A stretch of DNA of 54,647 nucleotides from Asterionella formosa (Eukaryota). Below are positions 4,600 through 54,647 of the stretch, in pieces. The translations under genes were made by a program, and so were the position numbers. Each line of letters opens with the position of its first letter. The first letter of the stretch is position 1. Location of the stretch: the NCBI GenBank assembly GCA_002256025.1, contig NKIB01013620.1:1-54647 (forward strand), read 5' to 3'. The notes beneath the pieces were generated by a model. It was not told where the DNA came from. It did not search any database and worked only from the letters and a program-made list of their open reading frames with translations.

Positions 4600-5094
4600 N
4601 NNNNNNNNNNNNNNNNNNNNNNNNNNNNNNNNNNNNNNNNNNNNNNNNNNNNNNNNNNNNNNNNNNNNNNNNNNNNNNNNNNNNNNNNNNNNNNNNNNNN
4701 NNNNNNNNNNNNNNNNNNNNNNNNNNNNNNNNNNNNNNNNNNNNNNNNNNNNNNNNNNNNNNNNNNNNNNNNNNNNNNNNNNNNNNNNNNNNNNNNNNNN
4801 NNNNNNNNNNNNNNNNNNNNNNNNNNNNNNNNNNNNNNNNNNNNNNNNNNNNNNNNNNNNNNNNNNNNNNNNNNNNNNNNNNNNNNNNNNNNNNNNNNNN
4901 NNNNNNNNNNNNNNNNNNNNNNNNNNNNNNNNNNNNNNNNNNNNNNNNNNNNNNNNNNNNNNNNNNNNNNNNNNNNNNNNNNNNNNNNNNNNNNNNNNNN
5001 NNNNNNNNNNNNNNNNNNNNNNNNNNNNNNNNNNNNNNNNNNNNNNNNNNNNNNNNNNNNNNNNNNNNNNNNNNNNNNNNNNNNNNNNNNNNNN
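4600..5094. other. Assembly gap (495 N)
   Basis: Run of N. Confidence 1.
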
Positions 5095-5450: not shown

Positions 5451-6750
5451 CTACGAACGCATCTTTTGACAAATTTCGACCGCCCTGGAGAATTTATAGA
5501 GCGTGTTGACGAGGGCTGCTAACTCTACGCGATGTACTTGATTTAGGTCAGCTCCTTCGCCATTACTTCCAACGAGAAGCTGGAATGCCGTTGACAGACC
5601 CATAATTGCGATTTTCCCATGAAGCCGGCATTTGGTGCATTGAACACAGTTCATGATTCGTAGTAGCGCACGAGCTCGCATTCTCGCTTCCCAGAGTGCT
5701 TCCATGGAGTAGGAATCTTTGACGGCATGGTCGTGAAGCTTCTTAGATGCCATGCCTACCGCGGTGTCATCAAGCAGACCAGCTGCGAGAACAACACGAA
5801 GCTCGTCTGCAGCATCGGCTCCGATCTTTCCAGAGTCGCAATCTTGTTGCAAGCGAGTCCTTGCCTTGGAAGCGGCTGCAAGCAACAACATATAGCAAAA
5901 GTACAAGTTCTCCATAGCCAATGGCACCTCACCCCGTAGACCGAGGCGTCGCTCAAACTCTACTGTAGGATCTGTCCATGCCTCCTCATCAGAGAAGCCC
6001 TCGCCCCTTTCGATCTTGGCTTGAATCCCTCGTACTATCTGTGTCGAGATCATAGCGTGCAGACCTGATACTGCTTTGTTGAAGTCGGCCTTCCAATGAT
6101 CGTCGTCGTAGCCATATCCTTCAAAGGCGATTCTTTCGTGAATAAAGTTCCAAACCTAGGATCAGTCATAGCCAGTGTAGTCCTCCGGGAACTGAGTAGT
6201 ATCATAGTAGTCATCAGTGGGCATGTCCCATCGAGCCCAACCATCTAAATCAAATGCGTGCTCATTCTTATCCACGGCCTTGATGTTTGCAGGAACCTGA
6301 ATGAGGTGCCAGAAAGCAGGGGTACATGGGTAAGCAGCTGAAAGCTATGGAGCTTGCCTACAAACAGATCACAACCAATTTGTCACTTACTTCATCGTCG
6401 TCGACAGGATAAATCTCACAAGTCTCGCTGTAGCATTCAAAGAGCTCTTGCGGCATATATTCACAACTTGCCAACATGTCAACACTGTACAAACTGAACG
6501 AAGGTTGTTCGCGGAGTTTGTGTAAGTGCTTATAGAAATCATGATTCTGAGCATCAATGGCGGCAATTCCTGGTTGCAGATCTGGATTAGTTGATACGTG
6601 TGCAGCACTCAAAGAAATCTTTGAAAACGAAGGCTTTGGTCTGAGCTTCGCGGCTGTCATTTGGGTGAAACTTGGCGAGTGGAAAGCTTCCGTGGCCCCC
6701 ACATGGAGAACGGCAGCTATAAAGACATTGCAGCACCTTCTAATCTTCAT
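5451..6750 (-). CDS. ERO1: ERO1-like thiol oxidase with bipartite plastid-type presequence; interrupted as sequenced by two in-frame stops (exons 6750-6391 and 6296-5451)
   Basis: C-terminal IMNCVQCTKCRLHGK (ERO1 CxxCxxC), PEDYTGY and VSGLHAMIS motifs. GT-AG intron at 6390-6297. In-frame TGA at 6164-6162 and TAG at 6158-6156. Confidence 0.85.
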
Positions 6751-7109: not shown

Positions 7110-9068
7110 ATGAAAGCAATCCCCACCCTAGCTATCGTCTTGCTTTTCGATGAGAACTGTGGGTGTCTAAGTAATTATTGGTTTCCTTTAAGTAATTTTT
7201 AATTTAGGGGCAATATGGGGCACAATGGATTTTTCGGCAGTCAATTTTAGGTTTGAGCAGCAGGGACCATCGAGCAACGTCAGCAGTAGAATTTTCATGG
7301 GAAGAAGTTTGGATACATCAAAATGCATGGACCTCCGAATATACCAGTACCGGTATATGCATGAAAAATAGTAGCACAAGAATGATTGTAACAAGCTTCG
7401 AAAATTCGATATGATGTTGTTAAGAAACCAAAGTATCAAACGGAAAACGAAAGGTAAGGCGAGAAAATAACAAGCAAGGAGTAGAATAAAAAGTGAAAAA
7501 GAATGAGTCAGTGGAAATATTGTGTGAAAATTTGTCAACGCATTTTAATCAAAAATTGTCAACTCACACTTTTTTGTCCTTGCAACGAAATTTCAGAAAT
7601 TTTCAGATTGGGCCTGGAGGAGCAGAAAGCGGTGCCTGAATGGACTTAGAGGCAGTTCTGGTTTCTGTATTGATTTGGACTTGCGATTGCGGAGGTGTTG
7701 GAGGAGCAACAGCTTGATAGTGGAGGTTTGGTGCTGGCAGTGCAGACTTCTGGTACTATCTGGCAGGAGGAGGAGCAGGATGGCTGCGTCGAAACTTTAC
7801 TGGCTGATGAGGGCGTTTGTGGCTTGGAAAATTGAGCAGGACAGGTTTGAGTAGGTTGATAGGGAGCAATGGAGTGATATGTTGTTGGTGCTGGCAAGAT
7901 ATGTTGCTGACATTGTTTGCAACCTGAAGACTTTGCAATCTTCGTGTGAGTTTCGATAAAAGTGGCTTGCTAGTGTTGGGAAACAGGAAAAGAATAATGG
8001 TAGTGTGTGTTTATTACAATTATAGTTAAATTTTAACAGCTGATCATGTCTGACGAAAATACTGGTTCAATGATGAGATGGAAGTCTAACTTTGACCTAC
8101 CATAATGTTTCAAGTTTTGATTCCCAAAGACTCATTGAGGTCGCTTCTGAACAATCATTAATTTATTTATCACTACATATCACATCTAGAGAAGGAGTTG
8201 ACCGGAAAGGCTATCGGAAATCAACGGAAAGGGGAACCGAAATTTTGGCACCACCATGATGAAGCAAGCAAAATGCAAAGATAAGAATCACATGAGAAGT
8301 CGAATTATCAAACAACCAGCAAGCCAGATCCATTTAATGAAGAGTCAGTACTACTTGAGACATCAATGACCAGATTTTGTATACATCGGAGCATGCTGGA
8401 AGATAGCAGTGATAGTGGAATTGCCAAAGACACTTAACAGAAACCATCATTTCGTGCCTTCATGTAGCTCCTCCTACTACTCTTGTCCAATTTCGGGAGT
8501 CGATCTTCCTTAAGTAAACGGCAGTTAATTGAGGGGCTATAGATATCAGTAATCAAAATTCCCTTAAATAAACGGCAGTCGATTTCCGCAATAAAATCTA
8601 GGGGCTATTGAAAATATTGAAGGTAGTTTGGCAGTCCAAAAGCGGAGCATATGAAATATCTAAAATCTGTTTTATATGATGGGCAATTGCAGGATTGAGT
8701 AATCCAAAAACTGTGCATATGAATATACAATATATTGTTTTATATGAAGAAGGGCAATTGGCTAGTTCGCATCCAACATACAAACTATCTAAAATAGGTT
8801 TTCAATGTTAACTGAAAGGGCAATGTAGTGGCGAAAAGTGCGCTGATAGCTTGTTTGTGAATGGCCTCGTACTAGTTAAGACCCTACTCAGGAGGAGTCT
8901 GCCTAGTACTCGTAATCTTGTGTACTTGGCTTGGGAGGCCTTGCTGGTTGACCTTCTCGAAGCGCCGGGGGCGCCACTTGTTTGGTCAACCTACTCACGC
9001 CTCCCAAGCCTCAAACACAAGAATACTTGCAGGCAGTCTCCATCCTCGGTTGTATCTTACCTTCAGTA
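7110..9068. mobile_element. Decayed long-TIR non-autonomous DNA element, copy A, with terminal rod hairpin (8878-9058)
   Basis: 7235-7570 matches 31530-31845 directly. 7110-7240 is the reverse complement of 33485-33585. 8845-9068 matches 33562-33777. No intact ORF. Confidence 0.65.
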
Positions 9069-29884: not shown

Positions 29885-30425
29885 GAGCTTGAAGTCAGCA
29901 GTCAGCGATTTCATGCCAGCAGTCAGCAATTTTTTCAAAATTTCAGCGAATCAAGTCAGCAGTCAGTAGTTAGCAAGTTGAAGTCAGCATTTTTACGATG
30001 ATACCGGTACATAATGGTAGCAATATGAAGAAGTAGATACTGTAGCAATGATTTTTTAGGCATCTATGTCTATTTCACAGTTTATTATCATGTACGGAGT
30101 ACCAGGTACGTCTATGTTACTCCCGATATTATGAACGTAGAAGGCATCGCTTTTAGTATCCCAACAACAAAAAGATGTGTTTCCATCGTTATTTAAATAT
30201 GAAAAGTAAACACGATTTGTACACTGGTACCGGTAGTTGGTCTCTTCCTGTGTACAAAGTAGCTTTCTTGACGTCAGCATGTTGAAGTTAGCAGTCTGCG
30301 ACTGCATGTCAGTAGTCAGCAAATGAAGTCAGCAGTCAGCGAATATTTCAAATTTTCAGCAAATCAAGTCAGCAGTTAACAACAAGAAGTCCGCAGTCAG
30401 CAAGTTGAAGTTGGTAGTCAGCGAT
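29885..30425. repeat. Two clusters of AGTCAGC/GTCAGCA heptamer repeats (29885-29990, 30270-30425)
   Basis: Repeated (A)AGTCAGCAGTCAGC units. The two clusters are also duplicates of each other (TTCAAA.TTTCAGC.AATCAAGTCAGCAGT). Confidence 0.85.
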
Positions 30426-31420: not shown

Positions 31421-31427
31421 GGCTGAG

Positions 31428-31553
31428 ATGACATGATGCACTATTTGCTCTCCAGCCGCTCTTCGGCAGACAATTTTAGGTTTGAGCAGGATGACATGAT
31501 GCACTATTTGCTCTCCAACCGCTCTTCGACAGTCAATTTTAGGTTTGAGCAGG
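31428..31553 (+). repeat. 63-bp tandem duplication at the left edge of long-TIR element copy B
   Basis: ATGACATGATGCACTATTTGCTCTCCA[G/A]CCGCTCTTCG[G/A]CAG[A/T]CAATTTTAGGTTTGAGCAGG, twice. Confidence 0.92.
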
Positions 31554-33777
31554 GACCATCGAGAAACGTAAGGAGCAGAATTTTCATGCGAAAGCAGCCA
31601 CATCAAAAATGGAGGGAGCCCCAAATATGCATGAAAAATAGTCACACAAGAATGATTGTAACAAGCATCAAAAAATTCGAGATAATGTTTTTAAGCAACC
31701 AAAGTATGAAACGGAAATCAAAAGGTAAGACGCAACAATTATAAGCAGGGAGTAGAATAAATAGTGAAAAAGAAATTGAGTTAGAGGAAAACTCGTGTGA
31801 AAAATCGCCAATACATGTACATCAACAATTGTCAACTTACACTTCGCTCGTTCACGTCGTCGAAGTGAAAAAATGAAATGTTCAATCAGGCCAGCAGGCG
31901 AAGCAGCAACCAATAGTTAAAGCGGCTCGGGAGGCAATGGTGCTGGAATAACTATGACTTGCGGTGGTTGTGGAGGAAGCAAGTAGCGCCGGCATGATTG
32001 TAAACTTTGGTGGCGTCGGCGTGGTGTGAAAGTTAATATATTGTAGGAGGAGAAAGATGACCAGCCCGGCGGATGGCTCAAGTTTCAAGGAACGGGATCA
32101 AGATCATCATCATGGTGGAAAATGTGATTGTACGCAGTGATGGAGTCAATTTAAACAATCACAGTAGGGTTCACTCAAAAAAAATTAAATTGAGATGACA
32201 ATCAACCTGACTTGTCAATTTCGTTGGGTGTGGTGTGGTGTGGTGTGGTTTGGTGTGGAGTCGTGTGTGCTGGAACATGGCTGGTACATTGCAAGTCGTG
32301 TCGTTGGCGTGAATGATGTAGATCATAATGGCTCCAATATTGTTTTGGAAATCATTGAGTTGCTGCTTTGGCTGGTGGATTGTTCCGACTGGCGATTCTT
32401 GTTCGACAGTGTGAACAGAAGTAAATTACAAAAGGTATTGAGTTTCAGAGAAGATGAATGGATGCAAGCATACGCAACAATCAACAGAACGTACCACTGT
32501 CTGGGAATCGTTTTGAGGCATTAGGAACATTGCAGCTATAGCTGGAAGGAACAAATGTGATGCTGGCTCCTTGGATATTGGATTGTGAGTACGATATACA
32601 TAGTCGAGATGTTTCATGTGGAAAACAAAATAGTCTGATTATTGGTATTACCGTGATTCACATAAAATCGACCAAACAACAATCAGCAGAGCATATCGCT
32701 TCCATCCTTGTTTGTCGTTCCACACTGTTGGTTAGATTCAATTTTATCTATCTACATGAGAAACAATGTATTTATCGATGACTACTCTTTGACGACGTAT
32801 TATTGTTGATCATATTTGTTGATTTGTATAGTCGTTTATCATGATGTCAAGAATATTGCCACCAAGCAATGCTTTTCTTGTACTAACGCGCTTTGCTACA
32901 TTTCTACTACGAGTTTATATCACAAGCTACATAAATACTCAGCTACAGGGAGTCAATAGTGCTGGAGCTTCCTGATGATCACAATCAATCAGAACGGATT
33001 GGAATGAAATGGTCAGGGCTGCTGTGCCATTTGATGGGAGGAACAACTGTGGGCGGAAGGACTGCAAGCAACTTGAGTCAGGCTACTACAGCGATGTTCA
33101 TGGTTGCATCAACCACATCATCTACACTTCATCACGATGCAGATTTCAATTGGGTTGAGCTTTTTTCTTCTTATCTGTTTCATTTTGCTCTTTGATCATG
33201 GTGTGATGGAAAGTCATTGTTGCCTGGTGTGTAAGTGCTACAATGCATACATCTCAATTGAAACTCCTATTTTTCACTTCATTTCTAACCCAAAACATTG
33301 TTTTCTATTTCTCATTTGATGCTACTTATTACATCGCATTTCATACTTTGGTTGCTCCAAACATCATGTTCAATTTTCATTGATGTTGCATGTTACAATC
33401 ATTCTCGTGTGTTTTACGCTTGTTGTACCCTTTCTATGTATTTTACCGTTATTCTGGCTGTTATGCTAAAATCGGTAATTTTAATGCCGAAAAAACTGAT
33501 ATGCCCCATATTGCCCCTAAATAAAATCTACTTAAGAAATTTCTTAGAACCTAAAAACGACGATAGCTGGAGCGGGAATTGCCTAGTGAAGACCCTACTG
33601 GGGAGGAGTCTGCCTACTCATAATTTTGTGTACCCGACTTGGGAGGCCCTCGCAGGTTGACCTTCTCGCAGCGCCGGGAGCGCCACTCGTTCGGTCAACC
33701 TACTCGCGCCTTCCAAGCCTCGAACACAAGAATACTCGCAGGCAGTCTCCACCCTCGGTTGTGTCTTACCTTCAGTA
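31465..33777. mobile_element. Long-TIR non-autonomous DNA element, copy B, ending in a rod hairpin (33589-33767) and CTTACCTTCAG|TA
   Basis: 31640-31800 is the inverted match of 33260-33410 (e.g. GCAACCAAAGTATGAAA / TTTCATACTTTGGTTGC; AGAATGATTGTAACA / TGTTACAATCATTCT). Homologous to copy A. Confidence 0.7.
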
Positions 33778-35353
33778 ATACCAGGTCGGAGTACCTGGTA
33801 CCAGGTGCACAAGTTTCCGGTAAATCTAAAACCGCTAAATCGATCGCTTCCCGAGCATGAGAAAAACACATAGAGTTTACCAACATGACAATCAAGAGCC
33901 TGATCCTTCGTGGATAAAGCAGTTGTGAACAACATGAACGAGAATCACGGTACTGAAACTGGCAATTCGAGCTTAGGGACGCCTCCGCTAGATCCCGTTA
34001 TTGTTCAGCTAGAAGAGAGCGACGCACTAGAGGAGCTTTTGAGACGGGAAACCTTGAGACATTTGGCCGCTGCATGGGCAGCACATCGACGTGTGTTAAT
34101 GGCGTGCCTTCCATTGCATCGCCCTATTGCTTCCCCAAAGGGAAAGCCAAAAAGGACACGGGACGATCAAGGAGGCTGCCACCATGAGGGGCGTGGAAAT
34201 ATTTAGAACTGGAATAGTGCAGCATTTGTGTTGGTGTCCGATGTAAGATATGACAAGAATCAGGATCAAGACTGAGCGGCTGCAGTAAGTACGTCGAATA
34301 GCTGAAAGATGATGTACCATGGAAAACAGCTTTTAGCCATGGACACGAATTCAAATCTCAAAGGAGTTTATCCATTGCATGAAAGCCTTTTGGGGCCTGA
34401 ATGATTCTAATTATCAGCATACCTTTTGCCTAGGATCAATAGGGACGTCAATTGATATGTAGCCTAGGTTGGACATTAAAATGAGTTCTTCGCAAAAGTA
34501 TTTTTAGTTTGCTTGACGCCAACAAGGAGTATTGGCGCTTAATTTTGGAATGTAGTACGAATACATGGTGGGTATGTGATTTGGCATGAATACCTTTTTG
34601 TTCAAGACAGGAAGTTGTGAGGGGAAGGCAGATGGCAAATTGTAATAATGGGACTTAGGAATGAGGGCTGATTGGAGTACCTTAATAGAGCCAGAAGCTA
34701 TGGTGTGTCTATTTAACAAGTGGAATACTTTTTTACTTTTTTCGAATCTTGGGTACAAGGGGATGTCGAAGGGAGCTGATCTACATACAGGTACTTAGTT
34801 ATGAGACATAGTCGAATGAGTCGATTTTTGATGTACCAAGCCCTCATCAACCACGCATTATTACTCTGACAGTAATGAGCCAGACAATATAAGCTATTCA
34901 GAAGACCAATAGTTTGAATAAAATGATCAATGATTATAAACCTATGATCAGTAAGTGTGAGTTAGACATGGGTCTATCTATGAATGTGTGTTCCTAAATG
35001 GAAAGGGTTTCCAATTGTGAAAGCTCCATGTAGCAACTCAATACAGTATTTTGTTTGTAACCCTATGAATAGCTTGAGCTAGAGGTTCAAATGCAGGAAG
35101 CTCAATAAACATGAATGTAGTGACTCACATACCGTACTACCGGTAGCTACGGTATATGAAATATGCATGATTATTTTATATGGATTAATAGTATGTACAC
35201 ATGTACATACCACATTTACGTAGACTACCGGTATACCGGTACCGCTAGTCCAATCTAAGTTATCGCAGTGGTTCGTTCATGATACTGCAGCTCTATGGCT
35301 TACGCTGGACACATACCTTTCGCTCTTGGCTAATAAATAGCGCAGTACATAAG

Positions 35354-37177
35354 ATGGCCGACTATCAATCTCTTCCACAACACTTTGGAAGAGGAGGAGG
35401 AGGAGGAGGAGGAGGACGCGGAAATTCGAATGCAAGTGGTGGAAGGACCAGTAGAGGCAGAGGGAGAGGCCGTGGGCCAATGACTCAAAACAATTCCAAT
35501 CAACACAATGATGGTCGTCTAGGAGGCCGAGGGCGAAGTGGTGGGCGTTATAGGGGTGGAAGAGGGAGTGAACATAGAGGTCGCTCGGATGGTACCAGGG
35601 GTACAGCTCTTGACGACGCAATCGAAGAACTTGGTATCAAAACGGACAAGTCCATGTGCATTGCCATTGAAGGCTGCTGTCACGGGGAACTTGACGCAAT
35701 CTACGATCGCATTCGTCGTCACGAAGATGCTACGGAAAGCAAGGTGGACCTGCTACTTTGCTGCGGAGATTTTCAGTCGCTCCGAAACACGGCAGATTAT
35801 CATTCTCTAGCTGTACCTCCGAAGTATCGATCCATGGGATCGTTCTACAAATATTATTCGGGAGAAAAGGAAACGCCCGTTTTGACGATTTTCATTGGTG
35901 GCAATCATGAAGCATCTCAACCTTTACAAGAATTGTACTATGGTGGATGGGTTGCTCCTAAGATTTACTACCTTGGGGCGGCTGGTGTAGTCAATGTAGG
36001 TGGTGTTCGAATTGGTGGGATTAGCGGAATTTACAAGTCTCATGATTTCACTCAAGGCCGATTTGAACGGCCGCCTTATGACAATTCGACCATGAGATCT
36101 GTATACCATGTTCGCAACATAGATGTATTCCGTATGAAATGCCTCTCTCAAGGTCCTGATATTATGATAAGTCATGATTGGCCCCAAGGTATCGAGCAAT
36201 TCGGTAACACTAAGGAGTTGCTAAGAAGGAAGCCATTCTTTCGCGACGAAGTGGAGCGTAACGACTTGGGGAGTCCTTGTAACCGCGAACTGTTAGACAC
36301 TCTGAAACCGAAATGGTGGTTTTCGGCTCATCTTCATGTCAAATTCATGGCAACTGTGAGGCATAATCCAGAGCATCTTACTACCACTACTGTTGCCTCT
36401 GCACTTGTACCATCACAACTTGTGCCCATTATCAAGCCAGCGCTTCCAACGAAGAAAGACGAGCCGGAACAAAAATTATTTTCGAAAAATGAAGTCAACG
36501 AGTATACCGAAACCACTGTTGAAGCAACTCAATTTTACGCCATTGAGTCGACTGATAAGTGCAATAGCGACGACCTAACTGATCAAATGACTCGATTCCT
36601 TTCCCTCGATAAATGTCTGCCTCGAAGACAATTCTTGTCCATCCTTCACATTACCTCGACGAAACCAAAAGATGTGATGGAGTATGACTTGGAGTGGTTG
36701 GCTATTTTGCAGAAGTCACATGAGTTGACCGTGATCGAGCACAAGAGGGTCAACATGCCTAACGAGCTTATCAAGATTTCCCAAGGTGATTTGGAGGCAA
36801 TCCGAAGTCAGCTTGGTAACCGAGGGCTTTCCATTCCAAACAACTTTTGTGTCACTGTTCCTCCTCATGACCTTCGAGATCGATTCTTACCGCCGATTCC
36901 TTTCATGGGTAATCCTCAAAGCGACGAACTCTTGAATTTACTAGGCCTGAGGCACATCGTGACTGTACCGTTTGAAAACGAAGTGCCCCTTGTGGATGAT
37001 AACGAAATCGATTTAGACGACGGCGATGACGACGACGAAATCAATTTACCTGCTGGCCATGAAGCTCATATGGGTAATTGTGAAACTCACTTGGATGACG
37101 ACGAGAAGGAGATCGATGTTGACAAATCCGTGATGAATGAAAAGACTTTAAAGAAGCCTAGACTCGATGGGATATAA
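35354..37177 (+). CDS. DBR1: RNA lariat debranching enzyme with N-terminal RGG extension
   Basis: IAIEGCCHGELD, CCGDFQSLRN, IGGNHEAS, SHDWPQGI, WFSAHLHVKF, TRFLSLDKCLPRRQFL, YDLEWLAIL and NPQ motifs; single exon. Confidence 0.96.
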   Translation: MADYQSLPQHFGRGGGGGGGGRGNSNASGGRTSRGRGRGRGPMTQNNSNQHNDGRLGGRGRSGGRYRGGRGSEHRGRSDGTRGTALDDAIEELGIKTDKSMCIAIEGCCHGELDAIYDRIRRHEDATESKVDLLLCCGDFQSLRNTADYHSLAVPPKYRSMGSFYKYYSGEKETPVLTIFIGGNHEASQPLQELYYGGWVAPKIYYLGAAGVVNVGGVRIGGISGIYKSHDFTQGRFERPPYDNSTMRSVYHVRNIDVFRMKCLSQGPDIMISHDWPQGIEQFGNTKELLRRKPFFRDEVERNDLGSPCNRELLDTLKPKWWFSAHLHVKFMATVRHNPEHLTTTTVASALVPSQLVPIIKPALPTKKDEPEQKLFSKNEVNEYTETTVEATQFYAIESTDKCNSDDLTDQMTRFLSLDKCLPRRQFLSILHITSTKPKDVMEYDLEWLAILQKSHELTVIEHKRVNMPNELIKISQGDLEAIRSQLGNRGLSIPNNFCVTVPPHDLRDRFLPPIPFMGNPQSDELLNLLGLRHIVTVPFENEVPLVDDNEIDLDDGDDDDEINLPAGHEAHMGNCETHLDDDEKEIDVDKSVMNEKTLKKPRLDGI

Positions 37178-37560: not shown

Positions 37561-40500
37561 AGCTGATACCGGTAATCGAGAAAAAGCAAGAAATGTATTG
37601 CATATTTTAATCATTTCCTCAACATAAAAGTATGCTACGGTAACTAGATATATGAATAATTAACCACTGTTATACCACGGAATGACGTTTTCAAATTTTT
37701 GTCCTAGCAGTGACAAAGCAATCCGCTGAAATGCTTGCCTGACAAATTGCAGAATGGTGAGCAGGAGTATGAGATAGGCTGAATGCGCCTTTTGATAGGT
37801 CTTTGCATTATACAAGGATTCGACGACCTACATACGAGGAACGGACGACAAAAAAATGAGTTACAATACATACCGTATACCAGTACATAGTTGAAAAATC
37901 CTATTTTTACACAAGCAGGCAATCGAAGAGCGAATGTACTGGTACCTGGTACCTGGTACCAGGTACCAGTAGCCCCGGTAGGTAGTTTTGCTTTGCTACT
38001 GGTAAATGCTGGTAAACCCGTACTGTTGGGTACTACCGGAAAGAATCGAGTACTGGTACTGGTAACAGGGTACCTGGTACCGACATATTCTAAACTACCG
38101 GTAGCTAACCTAGTAGCGATACCTGGTATACTACCAGCAAGTTGCGATATTTGTGCTCAAACGTTTAGTTATCTTGATCACATATTAGTTGATCAGCTAT
38201 GATTTTTACAGGAAAATTTCAATCTGGTTAATTGCTGGTGGTTCTTCACAGGCTATCTTTGTAGAGGAATTTTTATGCCTGACATGGAACTTGATGTACC
38301 ATGTAGACAACAGATAATAGTTTCTTTACTAAACAATTGATTTGGAGTGTTGAAAATCTGGGTATTCGCTTCTCTCATATGAAGAATGATTAGGATGGAT
38401 CAAAAACTACAAGCCCAGGTAGCTAAGTGTACACAAATCCTGAAGACTTCGCTGTGTAGCCAGTCACTGCTTTGTTGCGTACATGCATGAGTGTTTACCC
38501 AGATGATCTCCAAAAATCCTTAAGGGCCCATATTTTCATGTGTAAATTAAGAGGATTGTTTAGAAAAATACTCAAGCGAACTTTCACGAAGCAAGAGGGG
38601 AACTTTCATAGCTATGACATTGATGAAATACTACAAGGCACCCATAGCAAATGAAAAGGTGCAACAGCTTTTGCCTCCAGTGGATTTTCAGCAAACTCAT
38701 CAAGTGATGCCATTAACAACTGAAGGGTTGGATTCTAACTAGTTAGCTTCAGAGATGTTTATATGCTGTATGAGAAAGCAGACTACCATTATGTTGCTAG
38801 CATTTCAGCAGGCTTCCCAATACTCTCAGCTTGGTTTGCTGTTTCTGAACCAAATTTTTGGGTAAAATGATCATGTGATGATTGTGTCATACATGATCAG
38901 CTAATTATTCATGGAAAGGTTCTTGCTGTCCTATGGGTCCTGTTTGGTGATGTCGTGCTTTATCCACAAGTTGTTCTTGCTTTTCTAGTTGAATGAGTTG
39001 ATCTTGCTTGTTTCATGCATCACATCGAGAATCCACAAAAACTCAGGAAGTGAAATTCATTATCAATGCATTTAGCAGTAGTGTATACATGAAATGAAAT
39101 CTCAGAATTTTCAGATTAGGTTGTTGTTCATCAATTGAAAATATTTGTTGCAATTACATGTACATACATTCCTCCATGCATGTCGCTCACCTTGCTGCCA
39201 TAGACTAGTAGAGCAAATGAGAGGGGAAATTTTTTCAAATAAGTCCTAAATTGCTGAGAGATTTGGAAAAAAATTCAATGATTAAACTTATGCTGGTTGA
39301 CTAGTTTCAAAAATTCGATTGGTGGCCATCACTTAAAGAATTATTGGGCAAAAGTTCCTTGGGTTGAGAAACCCCTGTATGACTAGACAAGAAGCAGCAA
39401 CAAGGAATTATACAGCATCAAGGCCAACAATCAAGCCCAACAACTCTCAACAATCAAAAATCATCATCCTGATTGTTCTTGCATCCTAACTGGCTGGGGT
39501 TCCGCTTTGCACTGCAGCTTTTGCTTACTGCTTATGGCATAGCAAATATGGGAGGACCGAGATGAGAGGATTAAAATTGGTGTGTTGAATTTTCTATGTA
39601 GACAATCACAACATCAGTTTTGAGAATGGCAAAAGGAAAAATACTGATGCTGCAAATAGTGAGGAGCAAGCTGTTGGATGGAAGGATGCATAAGAGATTT
39701 CTAGTATAGAGACGAAGATAATGAAAAGATAGGATGGTTGAGCGAAAAATCGAAACCTCCTGCAATCTTTAATTACAAGAGAAAATGTCTATGTTGATCT
39801 TGAGCAATGTGAGGGCTGCCTTGGTATTTCACCTGTAACTGCTTAAGGGAGGAATAGTGGAACAGCACTGTTTTTAGACAAATGCAAGCAAAGTGAGAGA
39901 AAGTTTGGAAACAGTTATGATAACTTCTAGTAATGCAATCATATTCCATACATTGATTGTGATCAAATGATGGTTATTGCCATATTTTTGCAAGGTAATG
40001 AAGCATCAGCAAACTTGCAAGAAGTTTAAAGGTTCATTCACTTTCTATCTATATATTTGAAGAATAACCTTCATATTTTTGTACATCTGCATATATTGCT
40101 GTGCTAGCTACCCTGCAATATATGCATTCAATTAATAGGAGAAGTGTCCTTGCTATATATGTACTGCCACATCACTTGATTTGTGCCCCCCAGTTTAGTC
40201 GTTGCTAAAGTTTGCTAGCTATTTACGAGCTATTGCATGGTACCAGGTATAGGCTACCCGGCACCTGTATTACCGGTACCAGGGGTACCAGTACACACAA
40301 TGCCATTTGATGATTGCACTACATACCGGTAGTACAAGTAGCTACCTGTTACTGTATACGACCTCGGAATTGTAGGTGCCATACGTCACACATGAGCATG
40401 GTACCACTGGTACTTGCGCATACGCACATGGGCGGTATAACACGTATTATGATGTGATATTTATTGTCTACAGCATACCGGTGTATGCATTACAGTGTTA

Positions 40501-41049: not shown

Positions 41050-41122
41050 GGGGGATTAGCTCAGTTGGCAGAGCGCGTGCTTAGCATGCACGAGGTCGCC
41101 GGTTCGATTCCGGCATTCTCCA
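41050..41122 (+). tRNA. tRNA-Ala (AGC)
   Basis: Full cloverleaf: acceptor GGGGGAT/ATTCTCC with G3.U70, anticodon arm CGTGC-TTAGCAT-GCACG, T-loop GGTTCGATTCC, discriminator A, and an oligo-T Pol III terminator immediately downstream. Confidence 0.98.
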
Positions 41123-53997: not shown

Positions 53998-54135
53998 TAC
54001 AGAAGGTAAGACACGACCAAAGGCGGGTGGTGGAGACAGAGGTGCCTGCGAGTATACAGGTGTGTTAAAAGCTTTGTACTCCTTCCTGCGGGCTGGGTTT
54101 CTTTCGGTAGACTCTCACGTGCTAGAAGTACTACC
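53998..54135 (-). repeat. Third, partial copy of the hairpin-element terminus fused to a copy of the 29250-29322 repeat
   Basis: TA|CAGAAGGTAAGACACGACC...GTGGAGAC...TGCCTGCGAGTAT...TGTGTT is the reverse complement of 33720-33777. 54060-54135 is the reverse complement of 29250-29322. Confidence 0.8.
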
Positions 54136-54647
54136 TGGTACCATAGGTCGGTGATTTTATACTGCAGTTAACTGCGAGCCATTTTTTGGCTTCCAGCAGT
54201 ATACCAGTTATACTTCTACTAACGTGAGGCAGTATGGTATTGGGGAGTCCCACCAGTTATTATTACAGTTACTTTATTCCAATCCAACAGTATACTGGTA
54301 TACTGATACTGGTAAATATTACGTACAGTATACTGATCAAGAACAATGCGAGCAATGCGCCCGTACGCGAAAATTGGGCCCTCCTAGGTTTACTTGATGA
54401 TTATAAATTATCAAGATAGGGCTATGCTTAGCATGGTTAATCATACAAGACATAATGTAATCAGGTAATAGAAATGTTGTCCTTTCGAAGATATTGATAC
54501 TATCTTATATCATAATACCTTCTGGTGACCTGAAATTGGTGGTTGTCATATAGGTAACAAGAAAAAAATTGCTATTGATGCTATCATAATATATTCAAAA
54601 GTAGTTCCCCCAGTGAGTTAATCTGTAAATTATCTTGAAAAAGTCTC

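Follow-up and report, generated by a model that had tools for sequence, protein, structure and literature searches.

What kind of sequence forms the long hairpin at positions 33583-33777 of contig NKIB01013620.1 of the diatom Asterionella formosa (GenBank assembly GCA_002256025.1) is the question of this analysis. The contig was analyzed over positions 1 to 54,647 of the forward strand, and this whole stretch of 54,647 nt is referred to as the window. On the minus strand of the locus, hereafter copy B, two arms can be paired over their entire length, and the tetranucleotide CGAG recurs in them at regular distances, several times facing another CGAG. In a preliminary description made from the letters alone, this structure was placed at the terminus of a mobile element and proposed as a candidate for a system of its own. 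Based on the results reported here, copy B is probably a decaying copy of a non-autonomous DNA transposon of about 190 bp, of the foldback type or the type of miniature transposable elements with inverted repeats (MITEs), residing in a diatom nuclear genome, and its master copy was probably shaped on one strand.

Fold, boundaries and copies in the window

For the 231 nt around the hairpin, a minimum free energy (MFE) of −114.8 kcal/mol was obtained for the minus strand folded as RNA (z −7.51), a value equalled by none of 200 shuffled sequences, whereas the plus strand reached −94.5 kcal/mol (z −3.72). With DNA parameters, the 197-nt element yielded −44.5 (z −5.17) on the minus strand and −37.7 (z −3.64) on the plus strand. 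The two strands thus differ by about 20 kcal/mol as RNA and by 7 kcal/mol as DNA, and the minus-strand rod hairpin seen preliminarily is real. It is a single rod of about 95 bp, in which the longest helix without interruption has 12 bp. Arm-by-arm layouts placed the arms in register with opposed GA dinucleotides, as had been reported.

Over 101 aligned columns, copy B forms 64 Watson-Crick and 6 G.T pairs. Three sites are clean tandem G.A/A.G sites, each located between a C-G and a G-C pair. The remaining sites are imperfect: at one of them CGAG faces CGGG, at another the partner is TGAG, and at the outermost one GA stands opposite CA, which had also been noted before. Other oppositions outside Watson-Crick pairing are A.A (4), T.T (3), G.G (2), C.T (2) and C.C (1). 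The assertion that G.T wobbles work on this strand only held as a bias but not as an absolute rule, since besides its six G.T oppositions copy B also has three A.C oppositions. According to a published study, DNA "CGAG blocks" composed of G:C and sheared G:A pairs give thermally stable hairpins (Novotny, Plavec, Kocman 2023, PMC10085684). By the same kind of pairing, the minus strand is predicted to be able to form a continuous rod via G:C and sheared G.A pairs, while the other strand would receive destabilising C.T/T.C loops. On the minus strand of copy B, CGAG occurs seven times, spaced by 19, 16, 16, 17, 21 and 16 nt, and CTCG does not occur, compared to a window background of about 2.3 per kb for either tetranucleotide. 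Seven is the top count of CGAG in 200 nt anywhere in the window.

Read on the minus strand from 33777 to 33583, the locus is TA-CTGAAGGTAAGAC...GTCTTCAC-TA-G. The element is 195-197 bp long (a repeat of about 190 bp), starts with C(T/A)GAAGGTAAGA, ends with ...GTCTT(C/A)AC and has a TA dinucleotide on each side. Open reading frames (ORFs) crossing it are frame artefacts, having no Pfam match and just two database relatives. Two further copies, A and C, are located in the window (Table 1), in agreement with the second full copy and the partial third one with a common terminus that had been listed before. The 14-nt junction TACWGAAGGTAAGA has three exact matches in the window, one in each of the copies A, B and C, where chance would give about 0.8 matches even with two mismatches allowed. 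Besides A, B and the partial copy C, no copies were detected in the window by nhmmer with a profile made of A and B. Copy C forms no hairpin (fold z 0.38).

The flanks of copies A and B are unrelated, as local alignment of them scored 13 and 22, inside the ranges obtained for shuffled sequences (maxima 25 and 27). Because of these unrelated flanks, the hairpin is the whole repeat in copies A and B, and the assumption that it terminates a larger element had to be given up for them. TA precedes C(T/A)GAAGG in all three copies and follows ...CTT(C/A)AC in both full copies, which would be consistent with a duplicated TA target site. A target duplication of 8 bp (hAT-like) or of 3 bp was ruled out, because the flanks of A and B have just TA in common.

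Table 1. Positions of the hairpin element, its parts, its copies and the tRNA gene in the window
Feature	Position	Strand	Remarks
Copy B, foldback element	33583..33777	-	TA at 33777-33776; ...CACTAG end; homology to copy A; nhmmer model positions 1-198
Arm 1 (5' arm on minus strand)	33680..33775	-	begins CTGAAGGTAAGA; CGAG at 33757, 33738, 33722, 33706, 33689
Apical loop TCCCG	33675..33679	-	C at 33679 in family majority
Arm 2	33586..33674	-	CGAG at 33668, 33652; decayed boxes CGGG (33634), TGAG (33620)
TA after ...CTTCAC	33584..33585	-	candidate second copy of TA target-site duplication; copy A likewise
Copy A, full copy	8872-9068	-	87.9% identical to copy B over 198 columns; 3 CGAG
Copy C, diverged relative	53998-54077	+	limited to 5' terminus and outer part of arm 1; nhmmer E 1.6e-6 over model positions 1-66
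tRNA-Ala(AGC)	41050-41122		eukaryote-type isoacceptor

Family abundance, majority sequence and decay

To describe the family beyond the window, contigs of two DNA runs (X1, X2) and two RNA runs (X8, X10) were aligned to positions 32800-35400 at 80% likeness; the summed contig depth obtained in this way is not a copy number. In the X1 DNA contigs, the hairpin bins had summed depths of 228,009 and 751,254 vs 878 for the unique flank (33844-34713), and at single positions the hairpin depth corresponded to about 80-690 single-copy equivalents. The element was present in over 100 contigs, deletion variants among them. Low-agreement loose ends (0.52-0.56), which start at 33775 and 33777, mark the boundary at which other copies diverge. 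A scan of metagenomes for the terminus pattern gave 106 loci, none of which showed a blastn resemblance to the hairpin or to any other part of the window, so that these were chance matches.

Among the best-supported variant rows listed, beyond which 168 further rows exist, the family majority differs from copy B at five positions inside the hairpin, given here as plus-strand letters: A>G at 33620 and 33679, T>C at 33625 and 33712, and C>T at 33634. These letters account for 90-100% of the depth in X1 and X2, and they are present in 49-110 distinct contigs. On the minus strand, two of them turn the decayed arm 2 boxes TGAG (33620) and CGGG (33634) into CGAG, two restore Watson-Crick pairs and one is located in the loop. 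With all five letters, four clean tandem G.A sites are formed, the pairing rises to 68 Watson-Crick and 5 G.T pairs, and the RNA MFE of the minus strand improves from −101.9 to −118.5, that of the plus strand from −81.6 to −94.7. Since the majority letters restore pairs or CGAG, the self-opposed CGAG boxes appear to be part of the founding sequence of the family. A translated third copy on another contig (P0002), which has an apical deletion, showed amino-acid identity through four arm-1 CGAG codons and agrees with the majority in having G where copy B has position 33712; a further protein (P0001) represents the locus of copy B in a different assembly. The search for copies in the form of spurious translated ORFs yielded two proteins among four candidates, too few for statistics.

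In the majority version, the arms oppose each other with G.A (10), A.A (4), T.T (3), G.G (1), C.C (1), C.T (1), G.T (5) and A.C (1), that is with 20 mismatches of the transversion type vs 6 of the transition type. Copies A and B, on the other hand, differ from each other by 16 transitions (7 in CpG context) vs 4 transversions, and by 2 indels. The two spectra are significantly different (Fisher p = 2.5e-4). Also, purine.purine mismatches outnumber pyrimidine.pyrimidine mismatches by 15 vs 5 (binomial p 0.04). Decay of a perfect palindrome was simulated in 100,000 runs with the same number of mismatches and with transversion shares of 0.20, 0.67 and 1.0; at least two tandem G.A sites arose in fractions of 0, 0.00075 and 0.004 of the runs, respectively, compared to the four sites observed.

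The inserted copies themselves are decaying. From the seven CGAG places of copy B, two are kept in copy A (positions 21 and 110), while CAAG, TGAG, TGAG, CAAG and, with a deletion, C-AAG are found at the other five; one of the three CGAG of copy A is located where copy B has TGAG. The observed/expected ratio of CpG is 0.53 in copy A, 0.84 in copy B and 0.80 in the window, and a diverged copy in the loose end of an RNA contig (X8, 33724) shows CpG transitions as in copy A. The departures of copy B from the majority break pairs and are not compensated, so any selection would have acted on the master lineage and not on inserted copies. The preliminary expectation that the GA boxes are conserved is therefore borne out by the majority letters but not by the individual insertions. 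Within the data at hand, neither a perfectly palindromic consensus, nor an unconserved GA register, nor a match to an Rfam family was found, each of which had been named in advance as speaking against a selected structure.

The transposon interpretation and its alternatives

The element has the traits of a MITE: it is short (below about 800 bp) and non-coding, is an inverted repeat over its whole length, and occurs in high copy number with discrete ends. A transposase supplied in trans from another locus would mobilise it, as it does the palindromic MITEs derived from Tc1/mariner, presumably by a cut-and-paste route that duplicates TA. A transposase binding double-stranded DNA would be served equally well by inverted sites, so the observed pattern is not explained by such an enzyme. 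Self-opposition of CGAG and mismatches of like with like can be understood only if a single strand folds, which argues for a master that was shaped in single-stranded form on the minus strand. We therefore propose that the lineage of active copies may have been selected on this strand, either as a read-through transcript or as the strand that becomes exposed when the element is replicated or transposed. The result would be a stable rod and never a long perfect duplex. After insertion, copies would no longer be maintained and would lose their CGAG boxes via CpG transitions. Tolerance of long palindromes, protection of read-through transcripts from duplex-sensing silencing, or a function within a transposition intermediate are conceivable as purposes of the fold.

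Several observations weigh against this interpretation. Pfam searches of 13 + 48 ORFs of the window revealed neither a transposase nor any other gene for mobility, and neither an empty site nor an insertion polymorphism was seen, the insertion being present at the locus in X1, X2 and the P0001 contig. Mobility and TA duplication are deduced from two to three copies, and if the element end is set at ...CTAG, TA is found on both sides in copy A only. Among the contigs listed, RNA-contig copies stop matching at 33775 in eight cases vs six at 33777, and TA at the element end may not be universal. In both DNA runs, the summed depth of arm 1 and the loop exceeds that of arm 2 by a factor of 3-7, and copy C and P0002 have arm 1 only; the full hairpin may thus be a less frequent form derived from a commoner element with arm 1 as one of its termini. 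Full copies that can be read letter by letter number two, and the majority is known at the best-supported positions listed; conservation of the CGAG boxes, as judged from the letters, applies to these positions and not to every box family-wide. Finally, any purpose of the G.A punctuation is hypothetical.

The suggestion of an undescribed system was too strong, because about 190 bp, an inverted repeat over the whole length, TA flanks and a high copy number define a foldback or Stowaway-like MITE. The preliminary interpretation is partly supported: the strand-specific design is real and not explained by neutral decay, and the element carrying it is most likely a palindromic MITE, a known kind. 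No description of the element was found in the literature on diatom MITEs, sheared-GA transposon hairpins, introners and the terminus string, supplements being outside the scope of this search, and a repeat library deposited with some diatom genome paper may already include it. It is improbable that the active form is a single-stranded rod (single-stranded DNA (ssDNA) or RNA) whose two-fold symmetric CGAG/CGAG blocks, 16 nt or about 1.5 helical turns apart, serve for docking of a dimeric protein. If true, nuclear transposons would have an undescribed mechanism of mobility or packaging, or a stable fold evading duplex-sensing defences.

A related explanation, which corresponds to the preliminary reading, regards the rod as the transposition substrate, one strand being excised or copied as ssDNA and the two-fold symmetric CGAG blocks being recognised by a hairpin-binding enzyme of the Helitron/HUH-like or another kind. 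The strand asymmetry of the fold with RNA and DNA parameters, the excess of purine.purine mismatches and the self-opposed boxes of the family majority are all consistent with it, as is the 3' CTAG present in both full copies, which in copy A lies between A and T in a Helitron-like manner. However, the 5' end is CT or CA where a Helitron has TC, the base after copy B is G instead of T, the inverted repeat extends over the whole length, and TA fits on both sides in both full copies. Furthermore, no Rep/helicase gene was found in the window with Pfam, and no circular or fold-back junction specific for the element was seen among the joints listed. We consider this explanation unlikely. A Helitron in the strict sense, with 5' TC, 3' CTRR, insertion between A and T and no terminal inverted repeat (TIR), was rejected on account of the 5' CT/CA, the A and T flanks in one of two copies and the long inverted repeat.

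Quite unlikely is an introner, i.e. a transposon spliced from host transcripts, in which selection on the sense-strand RNA would have led to a rod joining two splice sites. Candidate splice sites are present at or near the ends (slashes mark the junctions): on the minus strand, AAG/GTAAGA stands at the 5' end and TCTTCACTAG/ at the opposite one, and the plus strand has TA/GTGAAG ... CTTACCTTCAG/. The sole defined host intron, that of the ERO1 gene in the window, uses GAA/GTAAGT ... TTCAG/. In two publications, introners bearing TIRs and target-site duplications (TSDs) are described as common in algae, with one diatom case reported (PMC9860276, PMC12130899). Against this stands that none of the three window copies is located in a recognisable coding exon, and that by arithmetic on the sequence excision would leave +5 nt (minus strand) or +2 nt (plus strand) and would not be frame-neutral. 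Other copies are contained unspliced in RNA contigs (four of the eight rows listed for X8 and two of the eight listed for X10), and no RNA joint across the element was seen among the 15 joints listed, 34 more of which exist. At the locus itself, the local RNA contigs cover positions 33907-34464 and not the hairpin; such a gap in coverage carries no evidential weight.

The hairpin could also belong to a family of hairpin-RNA genes or loci giving rise to small RNAs, the rod being the functional product and no transposon being involved. The strong minus-strand fold and the presence of copies in RNA libraries would fit, although the RNA contigs carry no information on strand, ends or processing. 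This explanation is very unlikely in view of the free decay of the copies by CpG transitions and of hundreds of copy equivalents with deletion variants among them. In addition, Rfam had no match to the hairpin at gathering score or at E<=10: at gathering score the tRNA alone was found in the window, and at E<=10 over positions 33000-34400 two weak matches were obtained, both outside the hairpin. A short interspersed nuclear element with a tRNA-derived head and the A and B boxes of RNA polymerase III was likewise rejected, as just a partial B-box-like GTTCGAGGC is present and ARAGORN gave nothing there.

Hardly credible is, lastly, a once-perfect palindrome that decayed at random with the G.A register arising by coincidence, since individual copies do decay (20 substitutions and 2 indels between A and B) but the majority letters restore CGAG and not CTCG, the mismatch spectrum is opposite to the observed mutation spectrum, and the simulations at realistic transversion shares stay far from four tandem sites; the preliminary view on this point was correct. 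Membership in the systems to which the structure had been likened was dismissed as well. The bacterial folded-DNA substrates (attC, REP/RAYT and other HUH substrates, IS200/IS605 ends) do not apply to a eukaryotic host, and the 21-nt core pattern had no matches in viral and prokaryote genome collections. A hairpin telomere would terminate a linear replicon and is ruled out by the internal position of the element and by its dispersal over three sites of this 54.6-kb window and numerous other places.

Under the transposon interpretation, the significance of the element lies in its fold. MITE hairpins are usually regarded as the accidental outcome of two inverted ends. A very abundant family with regular, strand-specific blocks outside Watson-Crick pairing suggests that the single-stranded form mattered for spread or survival. 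If true, this would provide a tractable case for asking whether palindromic transposons act via folded single strands, and it would bear on how such transposons avoid palindrome instability or RNA silencing and on a biological role for sheared G.A "CGAG blocks" beyond the test tube. Should the pattern be no more than a frozen accident in a single master copy, the element would represent an ordinary new diatom repeat family.

Genomic surroundings and comparison with known systems

The window encodes the lariat-debranching enzyme DBR1, ERO1, and zf-UBP, VEFS-box and HLH proteins (Pfam). ERO1 contains a 94-nt GT-AG intron, and together with the eukaryotic genes and the tRNA-Ala(AGC) this intron identifies the window as nuclear eukaryotic DNA. 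Among the best 120 relatives of DBR1, eight are named by organism; seven of them are diatoms (44-54% identity), while the eighth, a copepod record, aligns with 40% of the query. Public runs containing the region are labelled as algae, freshwater or lake-water metagenomes (20 rows, 13 studies), and a freshwater diatom is the most likely host. In the ERO1 frame on the minus strand (6155-6173), TGA and TAG occur in frame two codons apart (...YTGYD*S*VWNF...) amid a conserved stretch. These stop codons could be due to a pseudogene, an assembly error or a tiny unrecognised interruption; a changed genetic code is disfavoured because of long ORFs elsewhere. Just downstream of ERO1, a scaffold gap of 495 N is located at 4600-5094.

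Copy B is surrounded by other repeat families, which occupy 32800-33582 and 34800-35150 and have different depths. The hairpin is thus embedded in an island of repeats that are nested in one another. Within 32800-35400, the repeat of highest abundance is found at 33322-33408, 175 nt from the hairpin; it belongs to a different family and has a summed X1 depth of about 3.9 million vs 878 for single copy, several times above the hairpin. Directly upstream of the DBR1 start codon (35279), the high-copy repeat at 34800-35150 (X1 depth <= 652,379) is also abundant in X10 RNA contigs. Parts of 7233-7571 are found again at 31525-31844, by which the surroundings of copies A and B have further repeat fragments in common. 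Clusters of GGTACC-centred palindromes (ACCTGGTACCAGGT and variants) were observed at 37932-38090, 33779-33807 and 54128-54150; one palindrome is an 8-bp stem adjoining the TA of copy B and another one comes after copy C, and they may constitute a further repeat family or a preferred target. Other repeats of the window are a 63-nt unit at 31427-31552, present in two tandem copies with 95% identity, and direct repeats rich in CAGCAGTCAGCA that are 413 nt apart (29917-30416).

The closest architecture is presumably that of the palindromic, TA-flanked MITEs derived from Tc1/mariner/pogo transposons, such as plant Stowaway, Fusarium mimp and human MADE1, which were compared by their general properties and not by sequence. 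Like these, the diatom element falls in a size range of about 80-250 bp, consists essentially of two inverted arms with TA on both sides, is non-coding and of high copy number, and has copies within or near transcripts. It differs from them probably in its terminal sequence, in that no transposase partner is known, and in arms that are punctuated every 16-19 nt by self-opposed CGAG and by like-with-like mismatches favouring one strand. With Helitrons, it has in common the 3' CTAG with an adjacent hairpin and the strand asymmetry; unlike them, it has no 5' TC, is an inverted repeat over its whole length and sits between A and T in one of two copies. The algal introners (Gozashti et al. 2022, PMC9860276; PMC12130899) are similarly short, high-copy, TIR-bearing elements of aquatic protists with GT...AG near their ends, and they bear TSDs, for which the TA flanks of the diatom element are a candidate, whereas no copy of the diatom element was seen spliced or inside a coding exon, and its excision would not preserve the frame. 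In the CGAG blocks of PMC10085684, CGAG is also opposed to CGAG with G:C and sheared G:A pairs, but in that study they follow directly upon one another within a short promoter repeat, while in the diatom element single CGAG blocks are set 12-15 Watson-Crick pairs apart in a dispersed mobile element.

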